Assembly: GCF_058153355.1 (NCBI RefSeq)
Contig: NZ_CM177019.1
Length of the DNA stretch: 64,000 bases
Direction: 5' to 3' (one strand)
In this document: positions 1 through 61,312 of the stretch, in pieces
Numbering within the stretch: position 1 is the first letter of the stretch
Layout of the letters: each line of letters begins with the position of its first letter
The notes under the pieces: model-generated
Seen by the model: only the letters and a program-made list of their open reading frames with translations
Database searches by the model: none
Told to the model about the DNA's origin: nothing
Translations under genes and position numbers: made by a program

Positions 1-1495
<1,495 letters not shown>

Positions 1496-1555
1496 TATTT
1501 TTACAGCCAGCCGCTAACTTCCTACTGGCTGTAAAATTATCCTCTTCAGGAGGAG

Positions 1556-2981
1556 TAATGCCGATCAGTTAAGGATCAGTTGACCGATCCAGTGGCTGTG
1601 TAAGAATCCGGAAACGCTCACTTGTTTCCGGATTTTTTTATGCACATTGGACAGGCTCTTGATCTGGTATCCCGTTACGATTCTCTGCGTAACCCACTGA
1701 CTTCTCTGGGGGATTACCTCGACCCCGAACTCATCTCTCGTTGCCTTGCCGAATCAGGTACTGTAACGCTACGCAAGCGCCGTCTTCCCCTCGAAATGAT
1801 GGTCTGGTGTATTGTTGGCATGGCGCTTGAGCGTAAAGAACCTCTTCACCAGATTGTGAATCGCCTGGACATCATGCTGCCGGGCAATCGCCCCTTCGTT
1901 GCCCCCAGTGCCGTTATTCAGGCCCGCCAGCGCCTGGGAAGTGAGGCTGTCCGCCGCGTGTTCACGAAAACAGCGCAGCTCTGGCATAACGCCACGCCGC
2001 ATCCGCACTGGTGCGGCCTGACCCTGCTGGCCATCGATGGTGTGTTCTGGCGCACACCGGATACACCAGAGAACGATGCAGCCTTCCCCCGCCAGACACA
2101 TGCCGGGAACCCGGCGCTCTACCCGCAGGTCAAAATGGTCTGCCAGATGGAACTGACCAGCCATCTGCTGACGGCTGCAGCCTTCGGCACGATGAAGAAC
2201 AGCGAAAATGAGCTTGCTGAGCAACTTATAGAACAAACCGGCGATAACACTCTGACGTTAATGGATAAAGGTTATTACTCACTGGGACTGTTAAATGCCT
2301 GGAGCCTGGCGGGAGAACACCGCCACTGGATGATACCTCTCAGAAAGGGAGCGCAATATGAAGAGATCAGAAAACTGGGTAAAGGCGATCATCTGGTGAA
2401 GCTGAAAACCAGCCCGCAGGCACGAAAAAAGTGGCCGGGACTGGGAAATGAAGTGACAGCCCGCCTGCTGACCGTGACGCGCAAAGGAAAAGTCTGCCAT
2501 CTGCTGACGTCGATGACGGACGCCATGCGCTTCCCCGGAGGAGAAATGGCGGATCTGTACAGTCATCGCTGGGAAATCGAACTGGGATACAGGGAGATAA
2601 AACAGACGATGCAACTGAGCAGGCTGACGCTGAGAAGTAAAAAGCCGGAGCTTGTGGAGCAAGAGCTGTGGGGTGTCTTACTGGCTTATAATCTGGTGAG
2701 ATATCAGATGATTAAAATGGCGGAACATCTGAAAGGTTACTGGCCGAATCAACTGAGTTTCTCAGAATCATGCGGAATGGTGATGAGAATGCTGATGACA
2801 TTGCAGGGCGCTTCACCGGGACGTATACCGGAGCTGATGCGCGATCTTGCAAGTATGGGACAACTTGTGAAATTACCGACAAGAAGGGAAAGGGCCTTCC
2901 CGAGAGTGGTAAAGGAGAGGCCCTGGAAATACCCCACAGCCCCGAAAAAGAGCCAGTCAGTTGCTTAACTGACTGGCATTA
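1556..2981 (+). mobile_element. IS4 insertion sequence, 1426 bp
   Basis: Terminal inverted repeats TAATGCCGATCAGTTAAG (1556..1573) and CTTAACTGACTGGCATTA (2964..2981); 12-bp direct repeat CTTCAGGAGGAG at 1544..1555 and 2982..2993; single transposase ORF inside. Confidence 0.9.
1640..2968 (+). CDS. insG: IS4 transposase (DDE family)
   Basis: ORF 1622..2968; start chosen at MHIGQ to give 442 aa; sequence recognised as IS4 InsG. Confidence 0.85.
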
Positions 2982-2983
2982 CT

Positions 2984-3586
2984 TCAGGAGGAGATATTTA
3001 ACATCATTGCCGCCTGGGTGCGATTTTTGACTTCCAGACGGCGATACAGTGATTCCAGATGCGCTTTCACCGTTCCGGTACTGATATTCAGCGCCCTGCC
3101 GATCTCTTTATTTGATTCGCCCGCCGCTAACATGGTTAAAATCTCCCGCTGGCGGGCGCTTAACGATTTGAGATCTTTAATGTCCTTTTCCGGCGTCGTT
3201 CGCCAGTCTCCAGGCAGAAACATCATCCCCATCGCCGCACTATTGACCGCCAACGCAAATGTCTCGACGGTTGAATCACGAGGCACAATGGCCAGCACAT
3301 TAAAATGAATAACTTCCTGTAACCACCGTTTGTTGCAATCCGTCGCCGTAATTAACACCTTAACCTCAGGAAATTGCACCACGGTTTTTTGCAGCAACCA
3401 GTAGCAAAACTCACCATCCTGATCGCCATCGAGCATCACTAAGGCTTCAGGGTAACTTTCCAGCTTTTGCCATAACTCGTCTGCCTGACTGGCCCCCTGA
3501 ATACTCACTCCTGGAATACGATGCTGTAAACTGATTTTCATTCCATGAATAAATATTGACTGCCTGTCAAACATGACTATTTGCAT
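2984..3586 (-). CDS. yhjB: LuxR/FixJ-type response-regulator-like protein
   Basis: 200-aa ORF with C-terminal LuxR helix-turn-helix (REILTMLAAGESNKEIGRALNISTGTVKAHL). Confidence 0.85.
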   Translation of the reverse strand: MQIVMFDRQSIFIHGMKISLQHRIPGVSIQGASQADELWQKLESYPEALVMLDGDQDGEFCYWLLQKTVVQFPEVKVLITATDCNKRWLQEVIHFNVLAIVPRDSTVETFALAVNSAAMGMMFLPGDWRTTPEKDIKDLKSLSARQREILTMLAAGESNKEIGRALNISTGTVKAHLESLYRRLEVKNRTQAAMMLNISS

Positions 3587-31516: not shown

Positions 31517-31602
31517 GAACGAAAAAGGCCGCAGAGTTTCACCCCTGCGGCCTGATCCGGGCGCAAATTGCCATTACGGCAGCCTGACGCCCGCATGACA
31601 CG

Positions 31603-31710
31603 TTACTTCCGCTTATTCAGCGAGTTCACGATCAGACTGGCAAGAATGCCAGCAATGACCGGAGCCGCTAAATCATGCCAGAAGGCCATGCCCAGTTCTG
31701 CGAGCGTCAT
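31603..31710 (-). CDS. ldrD: Type I toxin LdrD, small membrane peptide
   Basis: 35-aa ORF MTLAELGMAFWHDLAAPVIAGILASLIVNSLNKRK inside the longer ORF 31603..31845. Confidence 0.7.
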   Translation of the reverse strand: MTLAELGMAFWHDLAAPVIAGILASLIVNSLNKRK

Positions 31711-31757
31711 ATAGCCGCCTCTGTTGTAATGACAACGTTTCGCGGCTATTCTTGAGT

Positions 31758-31824
31758 TGTTTGGGTTCAAGATTAGCCCCCGTGATGTTGTCAGGTGCAT
31801 ACCTGCAACGTGCGGGGGTTTTCT
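31758..31824 (+). ncRNA. rdlD: Candidate antisense RNA RdlD (antitoxin of ldrD); boundaries approximate
   Basis: Plus-strand hairpin CCCCCG...CGGGGG followed by TTTT at 31777..31824, opposite the ldrD leader; position inferred from the known ldr/rdl arrangement. Confidence 0.3.
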
Positions 31825-32185
31825 CTCTCCAGCAACCAATGCCACCAGGGATTAAGCCCCCGCAACATTGCGCCTCACCGGAACCTTTCCGGCTTGCCGC
31901 TGCTTTTACGATTGCTTTTTACCGTCAGCACCCGGCAATCTTCCTCATTGCGTGATGCCTTCCAGCTTAATTTCTTTATTTGCAATAGTTGCAGTTCATA
32001 TCCGGGCTGACTCCAGACTGGTAGTGAAATGCGCAATTTTGTAGAATTGCGCCTCCTCGCGACCTCCCCAGTGAATCTGTTGCCTCATTTTTTACATACT
32101 GCGTATTCGACTTCTCCACCTGTTGCGCAAGAGAAACTGGGTTTATTCATTTTTGCGAGGCCGACTTCTTTCTGGACAGGACTTT

Positions 32186-39889: not shown

Positions 39890-41202
<1,313 letters not shown>

Positions 41203-41410
41203 CATGCCTGCAATCTGGGAAACCGGGGTAGAAAAAAACTTGCAGGCCATAACAGTATCTACGTTCAGATTTGGTCGGTGCCAGAGGATTACTCGCCACT
41301 GCGTGGCTCGCCCTGCGGGCCGTTGCTGACGCAACGTTCTCTCGCTTTGCTCGAGTCGAACCTCTCTGCCCCCGGAGGTTCTTATCCTCTTCAGGTCGCA
41401 GAAAGCAAAA

Positions 41411-41439: not shown

Positions 41440-41516
<77 letters not shown>

Positions 41517-43299: not shown

Positions 43300-43622
43300 G
43301 CAAACAAACCCTGGACAAACAGGTGATAACACCCTGCTTAGTGGCTTTTCAGGCCCGGCAGGGGAAAAGTGCGGAGGTAGTCAGATTAGTAAAATCTACA
43401 CGCGCGAATAAGTAGACCACAGCAAAGGGAAAAAGTGTGGGGAAAGAGTGTGCATGAAGCACAAATTTACAAAAATGCAAGTTTGAAAAGAGACTATAGC
43501 GTTACAAAAAGCAGTAAAAAGGGCCAGTTCACTGGCCCAAATTTTACGCGTCATTGTTTATACATTGCGTTGAAGCGTTTGATTTACACTAAGGCTAAAG
43601 CCCAGTAGCTCGCGGCAGGTCA

Positions 43623-44831
43623 TTAAAGGGAGCCATGCGCCTCACGCAACATTTTCTGCTCTGGCTGGCGAATCGTCGTAGAAAGCGCCAGTGACAGAAT
43701 CAGCAGGGCGAAAATCACGTAGAATGTCACATAGAATCCGCCAAACAGTGAAGCGATAATCGAACCACAAATGCTGCCGATACCGAAACCGAGGTAAATC
43801 ACACCGTAGTTTTTTGCCAGATTATTTAGGCCGAAGAACTCACTGACCAGTGACGGGAACACAGTGATAGTGCCGCCGAAGTTAAATGCCACGCAGGCAA
43901 TCGCTGCAAAGAACGTCACTGCATTCAATGGGGCAAACAGCAGGGCCGCCATGCCCACCAGCGAAATGACCTGACCAATGGTGATAACACGGATACGGGC
44001 GATTTTGTCAGACAGAATGCCCAGCACCAGACGACCAGAAAGGTTGGCGATGGAAATAACCGTCACAGCATTGGCTGCGGAAATTGCATCAAGATGCGCC
44101 AGACTTTGAGCGATATCTTTCGCCACGCCAATCACATACAGGCCACTCATGCAGGCGGTCAGGAACATAACTGCTAACATCCAGTACTGCGGTTTACGCA
44201 TCGACTCTGCCAGCGTGTAATCCTTCTCCACCACGCCATTGCTGGTTTTCACTTCCTGCTTCGGCGCATCTTTCATTAATGTTGCGCCAAAGACAATCAT
44301 CACCAGTACAATCGCGCCCCAAATAACAAAGGTTTTTTCCAGACCGACCGTTTCCAACAGTTGCGTATCGATAAATTTGAAACCCAGACTACCAAGTCCA
44401 TAAGAACCAATAGCGAACGCAGAGATGAGTCCCTTACGCTCCGGGAACCACTTCACGCAGTTAGAGAGCGTCAACAGGTAACCCGCACCATCCGCCAGAC
44501 CAACCAACACACCGGCGCTTAACCACAGCATCATCAGGTTGTTGGAATGTGCTGTCAGGAAGAAACCTAATCCCAGCAAAATGCCGGAAGCCATAGTGAC
44601 GCGTTTAACACCAAAACGTTCTTGCAATTTGCCCGCAACAGAAGACGAAATTGCCAGCCCCAGACTTAACAAGCCGAAAGAGAAAGCAACCTGGCTTACC
44701 GGAGCCCCCAGCTTGGCAGAAAGCGCGCCGTTAAACAGACTCCAGGTATAAACCGACCCCAGGGCAAACTGGGTAATGATAGTACCGATGAGTGTCAGCC
44801 AGCGAGTACGCTGATAATTTGAAGGTGTCAT
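43623..44831 (-). CDS. yhjX: MFS transporter (oxalate/formate antiporter-like)
   Basis: ORF 43623..44876; start set at MTPSNYQRTRW (402 aa). Confidence 0.85.
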   Translation of the reverse strand: MTPSNYQRTRWLTLIGTIITQFALGSVYTWSLFNGALSAKLGAPVSQVAFSFGLLSLGLAISSSVAGKLQERFGVKRVTMASGILLGLGFFLTAHSNNLMMLWLSAGVLVGLADGAGYLLTLSNCVKWFPERKGLISAFAIGSYGLGSLGFKFIDTQLLETVGLEKTFVIWGAIVLVMIVFGATLMKDAPKQEVKTSNGVVEKDYTLAESMRKPQYWMLAVMFLTACMSGLYVIGVAKDIAQSLAHLDAISAANAVTVISIANLSGRLVLGILSDKIARIRVITIGQVISLVGMAALLFAPLNAVTFFAAIACVAFNFGGTITVFPSLVSEFFGLNNLAKNYGVIYLGFGIGSICGSIIASLFGGFYVTFYVIFALLILSLALSTTIRQPEQKMLREAHGSL

Positions 44832-58352: not shown

Positions 58353-58811
58353 TTATTCGCTGTATTCTTCCTGGGTAACCTGTGTTTCTTTTGGTGGGTT
58401 TATTCCGGCATCACGAATATTCTTCTGCACCGCTACTGCACCAAACAAGCTTAAGAAGAAAGCCAGTCCATAAAAACCTTTCTCGCTGAGTAATAACGTC
58501 GCATTCCACAGACCTACCATCAGTAACGCAACAGAGATAATAAAGACAGTCAGGCAGGTCATATAATAAATGGAGGTGGTCGGTATGCCTTCATACTTGT
58601 CCCGAACGGTCTTTTGATAAGATGCCGCAGAAAACAGTCCTAGCACCAGCACGGCAAAATAATATCCTTTTTCATTTAACTGCATCTCTGCATTCCATAG
58701 CCCTAACAGATAGGTAACGATACCACCAACAAGAGCTATCCATGACACAATACTAAATGCCGGAGAATAGGTTGATATTTTGGTAAGCGTCTTATCAGGA
58801 CCGTCTGGCAA
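58353..58811 (-). CDS. yiaA: Inner membrane protein YiaA with 5' end replaced by an IS terminus (chimeric start)
   Basis: ORF reads [10 protein letters not shown] from inside the IS66-family end (58783..58811) into [14 protein letters not shown]...; native start codons MDNKI lie 2.47 kb away at 61253..61267. Confidence 0.65.
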
Positions 58812-58857
58812 ATTCCCGATGCTTTGGACAAAGTATCCACCACTAAATTAATAGTGG

Positions 58858-59286
58858 GTGATAAAAATGTCAGATATACAAAAAAATGCCTCTCCGGGAA
58901 GGCCTAAAGGGTGCCTGAATTATCCTCCTGAATTCAAACAACGACTCATAGAAGCATCATTCCAGCCAGGTGTTTCAATTTCCAGACTGGCCCTGGACAA
59001 TGGTATTAATGCCAATCTGTTGTTCAAATGGCGTCAGAAATGGCGGCAGGGGAAGATAAAATTGCCATCATCAGAATCAGGCAGAGAATCTCAGTTAATT
59101 CCTGTCACTATTGATGCCCAACTCCCAACTGCTCCGGCTAATGAGCCACTGACCGCAAGACCGTCAGTAACACCGGAAATACACAGCATCTCCTGTGAGA
59201 TTACGTTCAGAAACGGCACCCTTCGGTTGAACGGGGCAGTGAATGAAAATCTGCTGTCCTTGCTTATACAGGAGCTGAGACGGTGA
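58858..59286 (+). CDS. IS66-family accessory protein (orfA/TnpA-like)
   Basis: 142-aa ORF; stop overlaps next ORF start (ATGA-type coupling). Confidence 0.75.
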   Translation: MIKMSDIQKNASPGRPKGCLNYPPEFKQRLIEASFQPGVSISRLALDNGINANLLFKWRQKWRQGKIKLPSSESGRESQLIPVTIDAQLPTAPANEPLTARPSVTPEIHSISCEITFRNGTLRLNGAVNENLLSLLIQELRR

Positions 59287-59630
59287 TATCTCTCCCTGCA
59301 GGTTCGCGTATCTGGCTGGTTGCAGGTATCACCGATATGCGAAATGGCTTTAACGGCCTGGCCTCAAAAGTTCAGAACGTCCTGAAGGATGACCCGTTCT
59401 CCGGGCATCTGTTCATCTTCCGCGGACGCCGGGGTGACCAGATAAAAGTGTTGTGGGCTGACAGTGACGGACTGTGCCTCTTCACCAGACGCCTGGAGCG
59501 GGGCCGCTTCGTCTGGCCGGTCACCCGTGACGGCAAGGTGCACCTTACTCCGGCCCAGTTATCCATGCTTCTTGAGGGCATCGACTGGAAACACCCGAAA
59601 CGAACGGAACGCGCTGGCATCCGCATATAA
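59283..59630 (+). CDS. IS66-family accessory protein (orfB/TnpB-like)
   Basis: 115-aa ORF MISLPAGSRIWLVAGITDMRNGFNGLA..., characteristic IS66 orf2. Confidence 0.8.
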   Translation: MISLPAGSRIWLVAGITDMRNGFNGLASKVQNVLKDDPFSGHLFIFRGRRGDQIKVLWADSDGLCLFTRRLERGRFVWPVTRDGKVHLTPAQLSMLLEGIDWKHPKRTERAGIRI

Positions 59631-59649
59631 CCCGTTGTAAAGTGAGGAT

Positions 59650-61221
59650 ATGGACACCTCACTTGCTCATGAGAATGCCCGCCTGCGGGCACTGTTGCAG
59701 ACGCAACAGGACACCATCCGCCAGATGGCGAAATACAACCGCCTGCTCTCACAGCGGGTGGCGGCTTATGCTTCCGAAATCAACCGGCTGAAGGCGCTGG
59801 TTGCAAAACTGCAGCGCATGCAGTTCGGTAAAAGCTCAGAAAAACTTCGTGCAAAAACCGAACGGCAGATACAGGAAGCACAGGAGCGAATCAGCGCTCT
59901 TCAGGAAGAAATGGCGGAAACGCTGGGTGAGCAATATGACCCGGTACTGCCATCTCCCCTGCGCCAGTCTTCAGCCCGTAAACCGTTACCTGCCTCACTT
60001 CCCCGTGAAACCCGGGTCATCCGTCCGGAAGAGGAATGCTGCCCGGCCTGTGGTGGCGAACTCAGTTCTCTGGGATGTGATGTGTCAGAGCAACTGGAGC
60101 TTATCAGCAGCGCCTTTAAGGTTATCGAAACACAACGTCCGAAACTGGCCTGTTGCCGGTGCGACCATATCGTGCAGGCTCCGGTGCCTTCAAAACCCAT
60201 TGCACGCAGTTATGCCGGAGCGGGGCTTCTGGCCCATGTTGTCGCTGGAAAATATGCAGACCATCTGCCGTTATACCGCCAGTCAGAAATATACCGTCGT
60301 CAGGGCGTGGAGCTGAGCCGTGCCACACTGGGGCGCTGGACAGGTGCTGTTGCTGAACTGCTGGAACCGCTGTATGACATCCTGCGCCAGTATGTGCTGA
60401 TGCCCGGTAAAGTCCATGCCGATGATATCCCCGTTCCGGTCCAGGAGCCGGGCAGCGGTAAAACAAGGACTGCCCGGCTGTGGGTCTACGTTCGTGATGA
60501 CCGTAACGCCGGTTCGGAAATGCCTCCGGCGGTCTGGTTCGCGTACAGCCCGGACCGGAAAGGTATCCATCCACAGAATCATCTGGCCGGTTACAGCGGA
60601 GTGCTTCAGGCCGATGCTTACGGTGGTTACCGGGCGTTGTACGAATCCGGCAGAATAACGGAAGCCGCATGTATGGCTCATGCCCGGAGAAAAATCCACG
60701 ATGTGCATGCAAGAGTGCCCACCGACATCACCACGGAAGCCCTGCAGCGTATCGGTGAACTGTATGCCATCGAGGCAGAGGTCCGGGGCTGTTCAGCAGA
60801 ACAGCGTCTGGCGGCAAGAAAAGCCAGAGCCGCGCCACTGATGCAGTCACTGTATGACTGGATACAGCAACAGATGAAAACACTGTCGCGTCACTCGGAC
60901 ACGGCAAAAGCGTTCGCATACCTGCTGAAACAGTGGGATGCACTGAACGTGTACTGCAGTAATGGCTGGGTGGAAATCGACAACAACATCGCAGAGAACG
61001 CCTTACGGGGAGTGGCCGTAGGCCGGAAAAACTGGCTCTTCGCGGGTTCTGACAGCGGTGGTGAACATGCTGCGGTGTTGTACTCGCTGATCGGCACATG
61101 CCGTCTGAACAATGTGGAGCCAGAAAAGTGGCTGCGTTACGTCATTGAACATATCCAGGACTGGCCGGCAAACCGGGTACGCGATCTGTTGCCCTGGAAA
61201 GTTGATCTGAGCTCTCAGTAA
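59650..61221 (+). CDS. IS66-family transposase (TnpC)
   Basis: 523-aa ORF with N-terminal leucine-zipper-like region, CxxC pairs and DDE-type core. Confidence 0.85.
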
Positions 61222-61312
61222 ATATCAATACGGTTCTGGCGAGCCGCTTACATATTTTGTTGTCCATCACAGTATTCCTTTCATTCCTGAATGTGTAAGA
61301 GCTTTATGTTGC

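Follow-up and report, generated by a model that had tools for sequence, protein, structure and literature searches.

IS10 and IS50 (of Tn10 and Tn5) carry GATC sites in one of their ends, and structure upstream of the transposase start limits their activation by outside transcription. Both are studied members of the IS4 family and, like IS4, have a DDE transposase with the YREK motif and duplicate roughly one helical turn of target DNA (PMC2266710). However, the duplication measures 9 bp in IS10 and IS50 and 11–13 bp in IS4, and the target preference of IS4 is much stronger and palindrome-centred; the specificity of IS4-subgroup elements in the arms of the target has been called "spectacular" (PMC2266710). 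IS4 is found in 50–69% of complete E. coli genomes (PMC7373316) and transposes rarely in K-12, contributing 8 of 758 new insertions (PMC5009759). The K-12 copy (insG, b4278; NC_000913.3, 4502090–4503515) is annotated as 1426 bp and is located between yjgZ and nanX. REP-targeting insertion sequences (PMC1525189) and elements of the IS110 family, such as IS621, resemble IS4 in that they insert into intergenic palindromic DNA and spare coding sequence. The IS110-family elements differ from it in being directed by an RNA guide, in inserting in a specific orientation and in using another class of enzyme, whereas IS4 uses a DDE transposase, leaves a duplication of 12 bp and can insert either way round.

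The window, by which we mean the whole 64-kb stretch of DNA analysed here, contains a complete IS4 on the plus strand at 1556..2981. It has the same length as the K-12 copy (1426 bp), from which it differs at three nucleotides (1423/1426 identical), at IS positions 903, 995 and 1061, and it shares with that copy the 18-bp terminal repeats, the 442-aa reading frame and the 12-bp duplication; only the chromosomal site is different, treF–yhjB in the window versus yjgZ–nanX in K-12. An inverted-repeat search placed the left repeat (IRL), TAATGCCGATCAGTTAAG, at 1556..1573 on the plus strand and the right repeat (IRR), whose reverse complement is TAATGCCAGTCAGTTAAG, at 2964..2981 on the minus strand, where it includes the TAA stop codon of the transposase gene (2966–2968). 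The two 18-bp repeats match at 16 of 18 positions and are the only matches to the IS4 ends in the 64-kb window. The element is flanked by a perfect 12-bp direct repeat, CTTCAGGAGGAG, at 1544..1555 and 2982..2993; this 12-mer occurs twice in the window, while no occurrence was expected from shuffled sequences. Since every defining feature of IS4 that could be assessed here was present (the length, the near-identity, the 18-bp repeats beginning TAATGCC, a duplication within 11–13 bp and a single reading frame), the element is IS4 itself, a known element, and not a relative. A scan of positions 1400–3100 against Rfam returned no family. The AGGAGG in the left duplication copy is followed by a 4-codon reading frame (ATG at 1558), which was judged trivial.

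The transposase gene (1640..2968, plus strand) encodes an intact InsG-type protein of 442 aa with the DDE and YREK motifs. The frame runs from the ATG at 1640 to the stop codon at 2966–2968 without an internal stop; PGAP-style annotation begins the protein at the TTG at 1622, giving 448 aa. The Pfam families Nterm_IS4 (3e-33) and DDE_Tnp_1 (9e-32) both matched over the full profile, and the NCBIfam model transpos_IS4_1 matched at 9e-91, scoring 304 bits where the cutoff is 115. Residues 307–321 hold an intact Y(2)R(3)E(6)K motif, as defined for the IS4 family (PMC2266710). Where the K-12 protein has G304 and R326, this one has A304 and L326, and the 442-aa translation is identical to those at three other loci (L006, L010 and L011, from CE10 and two other strains), where the coding sequence is annotated as WP_000483766.1. 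Near-identical copies have inserted independently and repeatedly, both at this site and elsewhere, which indirectly suggests a putative cut-and-paste transposition activity.

The insertion lies in the 51-bp spacer between two convergent genes. On the left is the 3' part of treF (1..1495, plus strand, 1495 nt), which encodes the cytoplasmic trehalase (Pfam Trehalase, 2.4e-166), starts before the window and is annotated as treF in the matching RefSeq loci. On the right is an intact yhjB (2984..3586, minus strand), which encodes a 200-aa LuxR/GerE-type helix-turn-helix regulator with a single substitution relative to K-12 YhjB (H22 for Q22). The empty spacer contains GTAAAATTATCCTCTTCAGGAGGAGATATTTAAC. 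The right duplication copy holds the last two serine codons and the stop codon of yhjB (TCC TCC TGA), with the TGA at 2984–2986, and 2 bp (2982–2983) separate the stop codon from the end of IS4. Since the last codons and the stop codon of yhjB are restored by the duplication, the insertion alters neither flanking coding sequence. An earlier note on this DNA had described a complete 1426-bp IS4 with 18-bp inverted repeats, an intact 442-aa transposase and a flanking 12-bp duplication, inserted between convergent treF and yhjB, 2 bp after a yhjB stop codon that falls within the right duplication copy. All of this was borne out: the element occupies 1556–2981, its repeats agree at 16 of 18 positions, the duplication is perfect, and the transposase frame is uninterrupted and matches the Pfam and NCBIfam families.

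The empty site was reconstructed by joining the two flanks with one copy of the 12-mer, and was sought in 5,426 complete E. coli genomes. It was found as a contiguous sequence in 5,390 of them, a comparison with genomes lacking the element that confirms IS4 as an insertion, as the earlier note had proposed. At the same position, 10 genomes carry IS4 in the orientation seen in the window (among them LC-1302-2020, MS8345 and 24AR0376) and 13 carry it in the opposite orientation (among them FDAARGOS_1290, CFSAN061772, EC1722-1 and AF14). In these 23 public genomes, the element is annotated as "IS4-like element IS4 family transposase" beside treF and yhjB. The junctions and the duplication of CTTCAGGAGGAG are the same for forward and reverse insertions and the same as in the window, but the flank haplotypes and the IS4 alleles differ. 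The best matches in the complete-genome set are 99.0–99.7% identical to the window, and a scan of the GTDB representative genomes for the exact junctions gave no match. Insertion sequences are common sites of misassembly, and neither the complete-genome set nor the GTDB representatives contain the genome from which the window comes, so that we considered whether IS4 had been collapsed or misplaced into this locus during assembly. Such an artefact is extremely improbable: the duplication is perfect and of a length typical for IS4, the identical junctions recur in 23 independently assembled complete genomes, and removal of the element with one duplication copy restores exactly the empty-site sequence of 5,390 genomes. 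At a second IS4 site, in gntP next to fimH, insertions were likewise seen in both orientations, in a sample chosen by flank similarity.

The flanks (3,415 bp) and the IS4 sequences were compared for eight of the 24 occupied loci and for four empty loci, including that of K-12. Among the eight occupied loci there are at least six flank haplotypes, which differ at 17–84 positions in 3415 bp; their IS4 copies fall into six sequence variants, including a frameshifted one of 1425 bp (MS8345). The flanks of the window are closest to those of a strain with an empty site, at 24 mismatches in 3415 bp, whereas the other occupied loci are all 74–84 mismatches away. Two loci, one forward (L001, from LC-1302-2020) and one reverse (L103, from CFSAN061772), have exactly the flank haplotype of K-12, in which the site is empty; they differ from each other at 0 of 3415 flank positions and their IS4 alleles are identical. 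So many flank haplotypes (six or more) and IS4 alleles (six) among only eight occupied loci argue for repeated insertion rather than shared ancestry, and they contradict a phylogeny in which the occupied genomes would form a single clade with one allele. The simplest reading of these sequences is thus that the treF–yhjB site is a recurrent hotspot, at which many independent insertions of IS4 have entered the same 12 bp, and that the insertion in the window is a separate and fairly recent event among them.

A single ancient insertion, inherited by the window and the other occupied genomes from a common ancestor at a site that is no hotspot, would account for the same junction and the same orientation in 10 complete genomes. 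It is a very improbable history, however, given that the window is so much closer to an empty-site strain than to any other occupied locus, that its IS4 allele differs from that of K-12 and from others, that 13 genomes carry a reversed element at the same 12 bp, and that the exact flank haplotype of K-12, whose own site is empty, is found with forward as well as reverse copies. Recombination after a single insertion could in principle account for some of the flank diversity, but the differing IS4 alleles and the opposite orientations argue against it. The two orientations might instead have arisen from one IS4 that was inverted in place by recombination between its inverted repeats, as the identity of L001 and L103 in both flanks and IS4 allele could suggest. 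Yet the haplotype of these two loci also exists without an insertion, as the empty site of K-12, and the other reverse copies differ in IS4 allele and in flanks. Furthermore, the reverse copies have a pure IRR (AGTC at positions 8–9) proximal to treF and a pure IRL proximal to yhjB. With termini that are swapped and unmixed in this way, an inversion would need a crossover within the outermost 7 bp, and we therefore regard inversion in place as highly unlikely. Independent insertion into a recurrent hotspot remains the preferred reading, and the two orientations are used almost equally (10 and 13), as would fit a symmetric target.

The target consensus of IS4 is AAAN20TTT; this string had no match in the literature searched, and the target preference was taken from observed sites instead. 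A first set of IS4 sites had been selected by flank similarity to the treF–yhjB site and was biased accordingly, and the weight matrix was rebuilt from an unbiased scan of metagenome contigs for the IS4 left end, in which 83 loci or contigs gave 51 non-redundant half-sites. These half-sites have an A-tract at −8 to −3 from the duplication, with A at −5 in 45 of 51. The duplicated 12-mer that comes next is GC-rich and in many cases palindromic, and has C as its first base and G as its ninth and twelfth. A T-run is expected, by symmetry, on the far side of the target. Among 23 distinct pairs of IS4 flanks, the duplication was 12 bp in 16 and 11 bp in 2, and no duplication was seen in 5. Many of the recovered sites are obvious terminator hairpins; one of them, AAAAACGGCCCC-TTCT-GGGGCCGTTTTTTT, lies downstream of tdk.

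The treF–yhjB target, GTAAAATTATCCT|CTTCAGGAGGAG|ATATTTAAC, fits this pattern of an A-tract, a GC-rich palindromic 12-mer and a T-tract. Its palindrome (CCTC-TTCAG-GAGG, with AAAA and TTT on its flanks) overlaps the stop codon of yhjB. The 12-mer includes this stop codon and the final codons of the gene, so that the target is conserved across the species and stays available. When the matrix derived from metagenomes only was applied to the window with IS4 removed, the true register ranked 116th among 62,514 positions (z about +3), and a register 2 bp to the left of it ranked higher, at 11th of 62,514. Since the best-scoring register is 2 bp from the true one, the matrix captures the preference of IS4 only approximately. 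The top-scoring unoccupied positions in the window are terminator-like hairpins near proK/RtT, cspA and glyS. This target behaviour agrees with the classical galT hotspot of IS4. It is also consistent with the arm specificity described for the IS4 subgroup (PMC2266710). No paper on IS4 together with yhjB was found in the literature searched, nor was a recurrent IS4 hotspot at the treF–yhjB spacer; the hotspot is a small refinement of the known target specificity.

Four hairpins bear on the fate of transcripts around the element. The intergenic hairpin next to treF (1495..1540) is an inverted repeat of 16 nt (1495–1510/1525–1540, 94%) with the stem TTTTTACAGCCAG/CTGGCTGTAAAA, and it folds on both strands with a z of about −4.4. 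On either strand, the U-run of the hairpin (at about 1498–1536) precedes the stem and the 3' side is A-rich, so that a 3' U-tract is lacking. A terminator scan did not call it. For this reason the hairpin, judged from its sequence, is not a canonical intrinsic terminator for treF or for yhjB. It remains on the treF side of the insertion, and IS4 separates yhjB from it. A second, smaller hairpin is present at the empty site, where the yhjB stop codon sits in the loop of TCCTC-CTGAA-GAGGA, followed by TAATTTT. This palindrome (TCCTC-N5-GAGGA), which consists of 1540–1543 and the left duplication copy, is intact at the left copy (1554–1540) and is split by IS4 at the yhjB end.

The third hairpin lies in the right end of IS4 and was called by the terminator scan in the sense of yhjB (2942..2977, minus strand). 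It has the form GCCAGTCAGTT-AAGC-AACTGACTGGC (2977–2952), followed by TCTTTTTCGG (2951–2942), and as RNA read from yhjB it is GCCAGUCAGUU-AAGC-AACUGACUGGC, then UCUUUUUC. The stem has 11 pairs, 6 of them GC, around a 4-nt loop, and it combines the GC-rich stem and the U-tract of an intrinsic terminator. The fold that contains it has a dG of −28.1 kcal/mol and a z of −6.0, equalled by 0 of 200 shuffles. In this minimum-energy fold, the U-tract is also paired with an upstream CUCCUGA, which could weaken termination. Since a hairpin of canonical terminator shape is found about 30–40 nt beyond the stop codon, yhjB transcripts would enter IS4, but most of them would most likely end within its right end, some 30–40 nt past the stop codon, and would not continue antisense through the transposase gene.

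Of what the earlier note had said on transcription, the separation of yhjB from the intergenic hairpin thus stands, but its expectation that yhjB transcripts would read into IS4 holds only in part, in view of the terminator-like hairpin close to the stop codon and the non-canonical form of the intergenic hairpin. If yhjB transcription did run deep into IS4, the RNA would be antisense to the transposase mRNA and could damp transposition or destabilise the yhjB mRNA. In favour of this are the position of IS4 between the yhjB stop codon and the intergenic hairpin and the splitting, at the yhjB end, of the small hairpin that has the stop codon in its loop and a U-rich tail; full efficiency is also rare among intrinsic terminators. 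We nevertheless consider deep read-through unlikely, because the yhjB-sense strand has a canonical-looking terminator with the tail UCUUUUUC less than 40 nt from the stop codon, and the displaced intergenic hairpin, which lacks a U-tract 3' of its stem on both strands, is unlikely to have served as the main terminator of yhjB. Termination in the right end of IS4 is accordingly the fate that we would expect for most yhjB transcripts.

The fourth hairpin (AAGAATCCGGAAAC/GTTTCCGGATTTTT, with a U-run) was found as an inverted repeat in the left end of IS4, at 1602..1637 on the plus strand, and ends 2 nt short of the ATG of the transposase gene. It has a 14-bp stem, a dG of −23.5 kcal/mol and a z of −6.2, and from its position and predicted stability we infer that it would be a barrier to transcription and translation coming from outside, on the treF side. 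A promoter-like site, TTGACC-16-(TG)AAGAAT (TGnAAGAAT), is found upstream of the transposase gene at 1580..1607 on the plus strand; it is a candidate only, and promoter-like sites in the region are at chance level (3 found versus 2.5 expected from shuffles). Transcription from this candidate would start within the 5' arm of the hairpin, so that outside transcripts alone would form the hairpin. A search for an outward or hybrid promoter created by the insertion gave one 9/12 match, reading from IRL into the treF side (1564–1536, minus strand); such hits are at chance level, and no claim is made for it.

Three GATC (Dam) sites, at 1563, 1574 and 1586, fall within the first 34 bp of the left end of IS4, and the right inverted repeat contains none, which hints at control of IS4 by Dam. 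The copy in the window thereby resembles IS10 and IS50, both in having GATC sites at one end and in its left-end hairpin; for IS4, Dam control and fold-back inhibition are both putative.

The explanation as a whole, in which we have high confidence, is that an intact IS4 inserted into a palindromic hotspot in an independent and fairly recent event, with a small expected effect on its neighbours. By analogy with the family, and with IS10 and IS50 in particular, the DDE transposase would make cuts staggered by 12 bp and join the ends of the element to them, and repair of the staggered cuts would give the duplication of CTTCAGGAGGAG. IS4 favours an A-tract followed by a GC-rich palindromic 12-mer and a T-tract, a layout shared by many intrinsic terminators. 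After insertion, the 3' end of the yhjB mRNA would move to the terminator-like hairpin of the IS4 right end and treF would keep its own hairpin, while the hairpin and U-run that precede the transposase start codon would keep transcription arriving from treF out of the transposase gene. From this arrangement of signals, the effect of IS4 on the neighbouring genes is expected to be small. More tentatively, and as something possible rather than probable, the treF–yhjB spacer may be one of a limited number of "safe-harbour" hotspots, in which the transposase picks terminator-shaped palindromes, possibly reading DNA structure besides sequence, and in which the 3'-end signal of the host is replaced by a terminator borne on the end of IS4.

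The feature described here is a known IS4 with a known type of behaviour, real but ordinary. The treF–yhjB site is a clean natural example of the strong target preference of IS4 and could serve as a defined target for transposition assays. Whether IS4 is present at this site, and in which orientation, is a homoplasious character and unsuitable as a lineage marker. For annotators, read-through from yhjB is not to be assumed, because the ends of IS4 carry terminator-like hairpins of their own. If the transposase does read the shape of its targets, IS4 could be a simple model of structure-guided target choice by a DDE transposase, and such a choice would also account for the persistence of a few copies of the element at little cost to the host. 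If the spacer is indeed a safe harbour, IS4 would land again and again in one and the same 12-bp target, either way round, and leave genes functional.

The dppA–proK interval contains ≈1.29 kb of DNA, at 39981–41268, that is additional relative to K-12. This extra DNA could be aligned to a locus carrying an IS621 annotation, and includes an open reading frame on the + strand (40173–41153, 326 aa) for an RNA-guided, IS110-family transposase (NCBIfam transpos_IS110, 253 bits). It is adjoined by a REP-type naRNA4 match (39898–39979) and by RtT (41272–41406), with tRNA-Pro nearby at 41440–41516. Positions 58783–61251 are occupied by an IS66-family element that is complete, measures 2,469 bp and has the termini GTAAGCG...CGCTTAC; it is flanked by the 8-bp duplication ATATTTTG at 58775–58782 and 61252–61259. 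According to the annotation of the matching locus, the interrupted host gene belongs to the yiaA/yiaB family. The element contains tnpA (at 58858), tnpB (at 59283) and the transposase (59650–61221). An IS679 copy in the same yiaA/yiaB-family gene of another strain did not align to the first ≈500 bp of the window element.

The ldr/rdl toxin–antitoxin unit is present in a single copy at 31519–31920, within which the rdlD match lies at 31759–31824, whereas in 2020CK-00188, the closest complete genome, Ldr occurs as a tandem array of three copies. This difference looks like copy-number variation that would have arisen by unequal recombination. The eptB–yhjX spacer in the window (43538–43635) is without lpfE/lpfD/usher remnants; in strain 12A (O111:H2), such remnants, ≈2.8 kb in length, are present at this position.

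Two other complete genomes with IS4 at the treF–yhjB site, LC-1302-2020 (L001) and CFSAN061772 (L103), have flanks identical to K-12 (0/3415 mismatches) and share a single IS4 allele, and the element in L001 is oriented opposite to that in L103. We interpret these as two independent hits on one common haplotype. The IS4 in E. coli MS8345 is 1425 bp long and is frameshifted according to its annotation; it is therefore a decayed copy at the same treF–yhjB hotspot. The hairpin in this intergenic region also varies: at position 1524, the window has A (CCTACTGG), whereas the other strains read there have G (CCTGCTGG), leaving one C–G pair fewer in the stem.

When the flanks of the IS4 copies on five metagenome contigs (L043, L044, L082, L091 and L094) were compared, a target duplication was absent. 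In each case, the left and right flanks corresponded to different known IS4 sites; in L043, for example, the left flank is the K-12 IS4 site and the right flank is another site. Such mismatched flanks suggest either that IS4 copies have recombined with one another or that the assemblies are chimeric.

Scoring with the empirical IS4 target matrix gave the highest unoccupied scores at ≈41416, 53119 and 53715. At these positions lie terminator-like hairpins, in the vicinity of proK/RtT, cspA and glyS; each is a predicted candidate landing site for IS4. A second site that has been used by IS4 in both orientations, in different strains (L004 and L008), is found in gntP, adjoining fimH, where the two insertions have the identical 12-bp duplication CTTCCCAGGCAG. 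Thus, reuse of one site by IS4 regardless of orientation is not peculiar to treF–yhjB.
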